Shown here piece by piece: positions 21,491 to 21,944 of a stretch of DNA of 64,000 bases. The notes beneath the pieces were generated by a model. It was not told the DNA's origin, did no database searches, and worked only from the letters and a program-made list of their open reading frames with translations. The stretch spans positions 3,502 through 67,501 of the forward strand of contig CAKQPE010000001.1 of the NCBI GenBank assembly GCA_934256695.1, read 5' to 3'. This DNA is from an uncultured Eubacteriales bacterium. Its GTDB lineage: Bacteria; Bacillota; Clostridia; Lachnospirales; Anaerotignaceae. A program made the position numbers and the translations under genes. Position 1 is the stretch's first letter; each line of letters opens with the position of its first letter.

Positions 21491-21506
21491 TGTTTCACGT
21501 GAAACA
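21491..21506. promoter_or_regulatory. parS site 1 (TGTTTCACGTGAAACA)
   Basis: Perfect 16-bp palindrome matching the Firmicutes parS consensus TGTTNCACGTGAAACA. Begins 2 nt after the argS stop. Confidence 0.8.
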
Positions 21507-21523
21507 TTAATAATTTAAATAAA

Positions 21524-21558
21524 AAGGTGTCGGAGTTTTCCGGCACCTTATAAATTTT
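21524..21558 (+). terminator. Probable argS terminator hairpin
   Basis: The AAGGTGTCGG/CCGGCACCTT stem is followed by an A/T-rich tract. The T-run is not contiguous. Confidence 0.5.
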
Positions 21559-21928
21559 AAAACCTTGGGGTTTCACCCCAAACCCTGACCGGCTTTTGGA
21601 AAAGCCGGAGCAAAACTTTTGTCAGATACCATGATTATTATAATCATGGTATCTTGTTAAAATTTATGTCAAGCCTTTTTATGGTTAGAAATTTGTTTCG
21701 CAAAAACGACTTCGTCGCCCTGTTTCTTCGGGTTCTCTAACTGCCACATCATGGTCAAAGCATTTTCGCTTTGTAGCAAGTTCACAAATTCACTTCGTGA
21801 ACAGCTTCGCTGCCGCCGTACATTCTGGCGGTTTGCTCTGAAAACGGTCTGCGACCGCCCCGTTTTCTTCGGGGTGCATACTTTGCGGTTCATTGCTTGT
21901 CAGAGTTTGGGGTGAAACCCCAAGGTCT
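21558..21928. repeat. Mosaic hairpin element with GC-rich cargo, copy R5
   Basis: hp1 21565..21581, hp2 CCGGCTTTTGGAAAAGCCGG 21589..21608, AGCAAAACTTTT, then hairpin CAGATACCATGATTATTATAATCATGGTATCTTG. A 245-bp GC-richer cargo occupies 21655..21900. hp1 21907..21923 directly abuts parS site 2. Confidence 0.8.
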
Positions 21929-21944
21929 TGTTTCACGTGAAACA
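21929..21944. promoter_or_regulatory. parS site 2 (TGTTTCACGTGAAACA)
   Basis: Second perfect copy, 438 bp from the first and about 135 bp upstream of parA. Confidence 0.8.

Follow-up and report, generated by a model that had tools for sequence, protein, structure and literature searches.

A probably ancestral pair of parS sites around the argS terminator in Anaerotignaceae, with a spacer colonised by a hairpin repeat

Bacillus subtilis carries about ten parS sites across its origin region, and spo0J itself contains one of them. The parS sites of B. subtilis and other Firmicutes follow the consensus TGTTNCACGTGAAACA. The locus described here, from a genome of the family Anaerotignaceae, shares the identical 16-bp palindrome, the origin-proximal position of the sites and a canonical ParB protein, in which an N-terminal GERRxRA domain precedes the HTH and the C-terminal dimerisation domain. 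It differs from that of B. subtilis in having only two sites, which lie 38-142 bp apart in the family and are both located in the argS-parA intergenic region, and in the gene order at oriC, as parAB is found here 3′ of dnaA-dnaN-recF. Several high-affinity sites packed beside parAB and oriC are also a feature of Pseudomonas aeruginosa (parS1-4; PMC4368675) and Caulobacter crescentus (PMC5815017). Those clusters are kilobases long and contain more sites, whereas the pair examined here is more compact and is split by a mobile repeat in this strain. One parS has been reported to be sufficient (PMC4368675; PMC7333895), which fits the tolerance of variable parS spacing seen here.

Within the window, meaning the whole 64-kb stretch of DNA that was analysed, exact copies of the palindrome TGTTTCACGTGAAACA are located at 21491-21506 and 21929-21944, a start-to-start distance of 438 bp, and both 16-mers match the parS consensus at every position. 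The rest of the window contains no further match with up to two mismatches, and two matches were obtained in 0 of 100 dinucleotide-preserving shuffles of the window. A scan of the whole assembly, which an earlier note on this DNA had proposed, identified these two as the only copies with 0-1 mismatch; the three matches with two mismatches each have a damaged CACGTG core. The assembly scanned spans 2.19 Mb in 192 contigs and is 97% complete, such that a gap could hide a further parS; the near-complete genomes of congeners likewise contain two parS only. The coordinates, the 438-bp spacing and the start just past the argS stop given in the earlier note were all reproduced, as was its order of argS stop, first parS, terminator, repeat element, second parS and parAB. 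The features of the locus are as follows.

19771..21489, plus strand: argS (arginyl-tRNA synthetase); Pfam tRNA-synt_1d, DALR_1 and Arg_tRNA_synt_N
21491..21506, no strand: parS1, perfect 16-bp palindrome beginning at the second base past the argS stop
21524..21549, plus strand: argS intrinsic terminator-like hairpin with an 11-bp stem (6 GC pairs) and a loop of 4, followed by ATAAATTTTA
21559..21929, no strand: mosaic hairpin-repeat element (allele B, below), consensus unit AAR-ACCTTGGGG...CCCCAAGGT-YTT
21929..21944, no strand: parS2, perfect 16-bp palindrome about 25 bp 5′ of the putative parA -35 hexamer
21970..21998, plus strand: putative parA promoter, with -35 TTTATT (21970-21975), a 17-nt spacer and extended -10 TGATAGAAT (21990-21998)
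22081..22854, plus strand: parA/soj, 257 aa from ATG; Pfam AAA_31, CbiA and ParA
22856..23746, plus strand: parB/spo0J, 296 aa; Pfam ParB_N, HTH_ParB and ParB_C; GERRWRA motif

The argS coordinates are those of the longest open reading frame, which ends with the stop TAA at 21487-21489; gene callers assigned 562 aa to argS on contigs of the same species. The parB product scored 199.5 bits against TIGR00180 (cut-off 58.45) and stayed under the Noc cut-off. It matched solved ParB/Spo0J chains with E values of 1e-49 to 1e-62, the best being 7BNK, 1VZ0, 6SDK, 4UMK and 6T1F, of which 4UMK and 6T1F are parS-bound and 6SDK and 7BNK nucleotide-bound. Its closest named relative is from Candidatus Neoanaerotignum tabaqchaliae (69% identical), and relatives are also found in Anaerotignum and Tyzzerella MAGs, by which the organism is assigned to Anaerotignaceae (Lachnospirales). 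A DUF4446 gene and serS are located 3′ of parB. On the 5′ side, the same contig harbors rnpA, dnaA (10920-12281), dnaN and recF, 6-12 kb from the parS pair; about 9.2 kb separate the 3′ end of dnaA from parS1, which places the pair near the origin. A second ParB-like gene (15186-16070, plus strand) is found after recF. Its product contains ParB_N and HTH_ParB, is without ParB_C, shares 33% identity with the ParB encoded beside parA and also falls under the Noc cut-off; this protein could in principle use the parS sites too.

The parA promoter was placed by eye and by conservation and is thus a putative one. Its block GTTTATTTTTCAAnTAAACTGTGATAGAAT is conserved in congeners, and the promoter was absent from the output of a simple sigma-70 scan. 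As parS2 is located just 5′ of the putative -35 hexamer, ParB may autoregulate parAB. The parA 5′ leader (22000-22070) contains about 45 nt that congeners are without, including a small hairpin, AAGAAAAGAATTTCGGTTTTCTT.

The earlier note had suggested that insertion of the element may have duplicated the parS site and had offered, as the alternative, that both sites are ancestral. To compare the argS-parA interval between species, 40 related genomes were searched with 21300-22300 as the query. Alignments within the genus covered the argS 3′ end, including parS1, and the stretch from parS2 onward, with a gap of only 1-62 bp between them. Seven congeners (G002, G003, G004, G005, G006, G007 and G008) have two perfect parS sites at spacings of 38-78 bp, and an eighth (G001) has one perfect site and a parS1 with a single mismatch, 72 bp apart. 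The placement of parS1 directly past the argS stop is kept in all congeners, as are parS2 and its downstream flank, and most have a terminator hairpin between the two parS sites, in the same place as that of the window but a different hairpin. The hp1 hairpin of the element (below) was found in the interval between the parS sites in 0 of the 8 congeners. The pair is also present, with spacings of 38-142 bp, in six other genera of Anaerotignaceae (Lachnospirales; G009, G010, G011, G012, G014 and G015).

A census that allowed up to one mismatch counted exactly two parS sites in 8 of 9 genus genomes and in 5 of 6 genomes from the other genera (G009, G010, G012, G014 and G015); the sixth, G011, has a third parS on another contig. 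Where the loci were read, the census sites were the argS-parA pair. The pair is thus kept in 9/9 genus genomes and in six other genera while the flanks and the spacing drift. Together, the census and the occurrence of the pair across genera argue that it is ancestral at the family level and makes up the whole centromere. In two of the other genera (G010, locus L023; G012, loci L021/L010), a longer perfect hairpin carries the first parS at its apex and leads into a T-run, as in GCTGA-TGTTTCACGTGAAACG-TCAGC-TTTTTTT. In these genomes the first parS appears, as judged from this arrangement, to double as the argS terminator.

The interval between the terminator and parS2 is filled in the window by the mosaic element, which is composed of the following parts.

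21559..21681, no strand: left module, about 123 bp; about 30 copies at 75-87% identity in its own genome (blastn)
21565..21581, no strand: left hp1 hairpin, TTGGGGTTTCACCCCAA
21590..21609, no strand: hp2 hairpin, CCGGCTTTTGGAAAAGCCGG; the stem differs among copies yet is self-complementary
21625..21653, no strand: hp3 palindrome, GATACCATGATTATTATAATCATGGTATC
21681..21891, no strand: inner GC-richer module, about 210 bp
21907..21923, no strand: right hp1 hairpin, TTGGGGTGAAACCCCAA, in the opposite orientation to the left hp1 and 5 nt from parS2

The strict core bounded by terminal inverted repeats (TIRs) spans 21562-21927 (366 bp). The TIRs are 28-31 nt long (ACCTTGGGGTTTCACCCCAAAC...), and the 31-nt TIR shows 94% complementarity. 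The repeat unit is AAR-ACC...GGT-YTT, and its end, GGTYTT, reaches 21929, the first T of parS2. The three outer bases, AAR/YTT, accompany 96-99% of copies and may be part of either the element or its target. The genome contains 165-167 copies of the end motif and, by blastn, more than 150 copies of the hp1 plus hp2 unit of about 66 bp. The hp1 variant CCTTGGGGTTTCACCCCAA is present 167 times in the 2.19-Mb genome and has no copy genome-wide in representatives of eight congeneric species. Of 165 hp1 copies, 37 are within 400 bp of a contig end, marking the repeat as a major source of assembly breaks. The inner module has three full-length copies elsewhere in the genome (C23, C92 and C4; 95-96% identity) and one partial copy (C24; 151 bp, 98.7% identity) as determined by blastn, and pieces related to it are found in two other genera.

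On each strand, the fold of the inner module is better than that of shuffled sequences (z of -2.85 and -3.61), which fits hairpin-rich DNA and is by itself no sign of an RNA gene. Searches of the stretch between the parS sites with Rfam, at gathering thresholds and in a permissive scan, returned no family. The sole open reading frame inside the element encodes 74 aa, without a Pfam match. These properties resemble those of REP/BIME/REPIN-type and MITE-like repeats, with which the element shares non-coding hairpin modules, inverted-repeat ends, a high copy number (more than 160), intergenic location and presence/absence polymorphism across strains. As distinct from those repeats, the stems of this one covary from copy to copy, and a clear target-site duplication was not seen: paired element ends revealed none that was convincing, and no flanking direct repeat was seen.

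The polymorphism is evident within the species. An exact look-up of ParA retrieved 23 public contigs on which the identical 257-aa product is called (100% identity), and these were taken as the same species. Their flanks are those of the window, and the stretch from the terminator to parS2 takes three forms, in all of which both parS sites are perfect.

Allele A, parS spacing 98 bp: solo 29-nt hairpin ACCTTGGGG-CAAAA-CCCCAAGG(C/T)CT, in the six contigs shown and seven similar places
Allele B, parS spacing 438 bp: the 366-bp mosaic, in the window and in an independent assembly, GCA_964261755.1 (L110)
Allele C, parS spacing 316 bp: an unrelated hairpin element, about 290 bp long, whose hp1 variants are others (GTGGGCGTTGCCCAC / GTGGACGGAGTCCAC), in one 305-kb contig

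The predominance of allele A is biased, as long repeats break short-read assemblies. Four further solo hairpins of the form AAGACCTTGGGG-loop-CCCCAAGGTCTT are located elsewhere in the genome, which makes allele A a normal minimal form of the repeat. Alleles A and B have a common outer stem, including an AAAACC mismatch, and differ at the apex alone (5 nt versus 345 nt). This comparison (L105-L112 versus window 21550-21930; CAAAA versus 345 nt) provides population-level evidence of growth or shrinkage at hairpin apices. The sequence of allele C is unrelated to that of A and B, pointing to an independent event. When the element is subtracted, the parS spacing is 67-72 bp, within the range of the congeners.

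The reading that we favor, with a probability of about 0.88, is that the two palindromes are ancestral, origin-proximal tandem ParB loading sites around the argS terminator and the only parS sites of the genome, and that their spacer was colonised by a hairpin repeat, likely with neutral effect. ParB nucleation at parS, the CTP clamp, sliding, the role of ParA and SMC loading are described in PMC7333895, PMC7053999 and PMC8367383, and from these papers and by homology we infer ParB binding, CTP-dependent loading and SMC recruitment at the present pair. Thus, ParB dimers would bind each palindrome via the HTH domain, and parS would trigger CTP-dependent closure of the ParB clamp. The clamps would then slide onto flanking DNA, and the resulting ParB complex would be moved by ParA and would load SMC. 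The species-specific hairpin repeat colonised the spacer of about 12-14 nt that separates the terminator from parS2, and the 366-bp mosaic allele widens the parS spacing from about 70 bp to 438 bp. Neither parS was created, destroyed or altered by the insertion. The spacing in relatives (38-142 bp) shows no fixed helical phase, ParB spreads over kilobases and one site is often enough elsewhere; hence, the insert is most likely neutral for segregation.

Under the duplication model, the ancestor had one parS, and insertion of the mosaic element doubled it, much as a long target-site or palindrome duplication would, thereby making the second site. One element end does lie 0-2 nt from parS2 and, according to the earlier note only, other copies of the element have a local palindrome on both sides. 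However, parS1 ends at 21506 and the left end of the element lies about 55 nt away, at about 21559, beyond the terminator, so that the duplicated sequence does not abut both element ends as in a target-site duplication, and the element flanks bear no direct repeat. Moreover, relatives whose argS-parA interval is free of the element have two parS sites each, not one: this is seen in the 8 congeners and the six other genera, and same-species alleles A and C also contain both sites. With both sites present in element-free relatives, parS1 set apart from the element and a direct repeat missing, the duplication model fails and its residual probability is close to nil. The alternative offered in the earlier note, that both sites are ancestral, is the one borne out by the relatives, and the sequences indicate that the hairpin repeat landed later between the members of an old pair and did not give rise to the second parS. 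A different challenge is that the 16-mers are not ParB sites at all and instead are operators of another regulator or mere RNA or terminator structure. The hairpin apex with a T-run at the first site of G010 and G012 would suit this view, as would the position of parS2 about 25 bp 5′ of the putative parA -35, a spot suited to an operator. Against it, both 16-mers match the pan-bacterial parS consensus exactly and are the only two in the genome, placed near oriC beside a canonical parAB. Across the family, the 16-mer is kept while flanks and spacing drift, and parAB is accompanied by clusters of this motif throughout Lachnospirales and Clostridium. We therefore regard this reading as very improbable. 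The identification of the sites as parS by the earlier note stands on the same grounds, namely the perfect consensus match, the adjoining parAB, the nearby origin and the conservation in relatives, with ParB binding predicted by homology.

Whether insertions near parS2 are targeted is a separate question. The repeat machinery might prefer palindromes or hairpins (parS, the terminator), making the spacer a hot spot, and, as an optional addition, the sequence GTTTCAC in the hp1 loop might act as a weak half-parS. Three structural alleles have arisen in a spacer of about 12-14 nt in one species, with at least two independent origins (A/B versus C), and the insert of each allele ends 0-2 nt from parS2. 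The difference between A and B at one hairpin apex is, in addition, what would be expected if elements enter existing hairpins. Nevertheless, the spacer is so short that every insertion in it must fall near parS2, and palindromes with a stem of at least 6 adjoin 4.8% of 165 hp1 ends as compared to 9.8% of random intergenic positions, a control that is crude as the intergenic DNA of this genome is packed with hairpin repeats. The half-site idea draws on the binding of P. aeruginosa ParB to half-parS sites such as GTTTCAC (PMC5961200), on the presence of this heptamer, one arm of parS, in the loop plus stem of hp1 and on the finding that 125 of its 361 copies in the genome lie in hp1. However, the hp1 loops vary (TTTCA/TGAAA, 109; CAACG/CGTTG, 45; CTTTG/CAAAG, 29), GTTTCAC is absent from the hairpins of allele C and the likeness is limited to one loop variant. 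Outside hp1 there is no excess of the heptamer (236 copies as compared to a median of 269 for heptamers of the same composition). We thus treat the resemblance of hp1 to a parS arm as chance and consider a targeting or half-site role unlikely. The fuller version, in which the spacer is a preferred landing pad because ParB-loaded or cruciform-prone parS, or the terminator hairpin, attracts the machinery and in which hp1 GTTTCAC represents a dispersed half-parS, seems quite unlikely.

In a set of 80 loci drawn from Lachnospirales and other Clostridia, Lachnospiraceae, Dorea, Vallitalea and Anaerotignaceae commonly have clusters of 1-9 perfect parS sites just 5′ of parA, whereas Clostridium sensu stricto has its site or sites just 3′ of parB. 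A multi-site parS cluster beside parAB is therefore the regional norm, making the present locus an ordinary one in this respect. In Clostridium sensu stricto, two perfect parS sites can be found end to end directly past the parB stop (TAA TGTTTCACGTGAAACA TGTTTCACGTGAAACA), as in Clostridium sp. Ade.TY (L067 3862-3893), C. sardiniense (L092) and C. perfringens (L093); the same 16-bp offset recurs in a Clostridium sp. MAG (L089) and in C. sardiniense DSM 2632 (L099). A ruminal Lachnospiraceae MAG (L094 110-1836) harbors nine perfect parS sites 5′ of parA, among them two runs with an 89-94-bp period, and in L085 (92-985) a three-site unit with spacings of 113 and 131 bp is present twice 5′ of parA. 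These arrays indicate that tandem amplification of parS-bearing units occurs in relatives.

What is mildly new here is the family-wide two-site centromere around the argS terminator, together with a spacer that is polymorphic for a hairpin repeat; the locus is otherwise ordinary. The comparison removes an attractive but wrong story, that of a centromere duplicated by a mobile element, and in its place the Anaerotignaceae, a gut family of Clostridia, emerge with a minimal two-site centromere set around the argS terminator. The natural alleles, with parS spacings of 98, 316 and 438 bp, represent an experiment already set up by nature: should segregation work with each of them, which is likely, parS spacing would be unconstrained. 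Such tolerance would have a modest bearing on the question of why parS sites cluster (PMC7333895).
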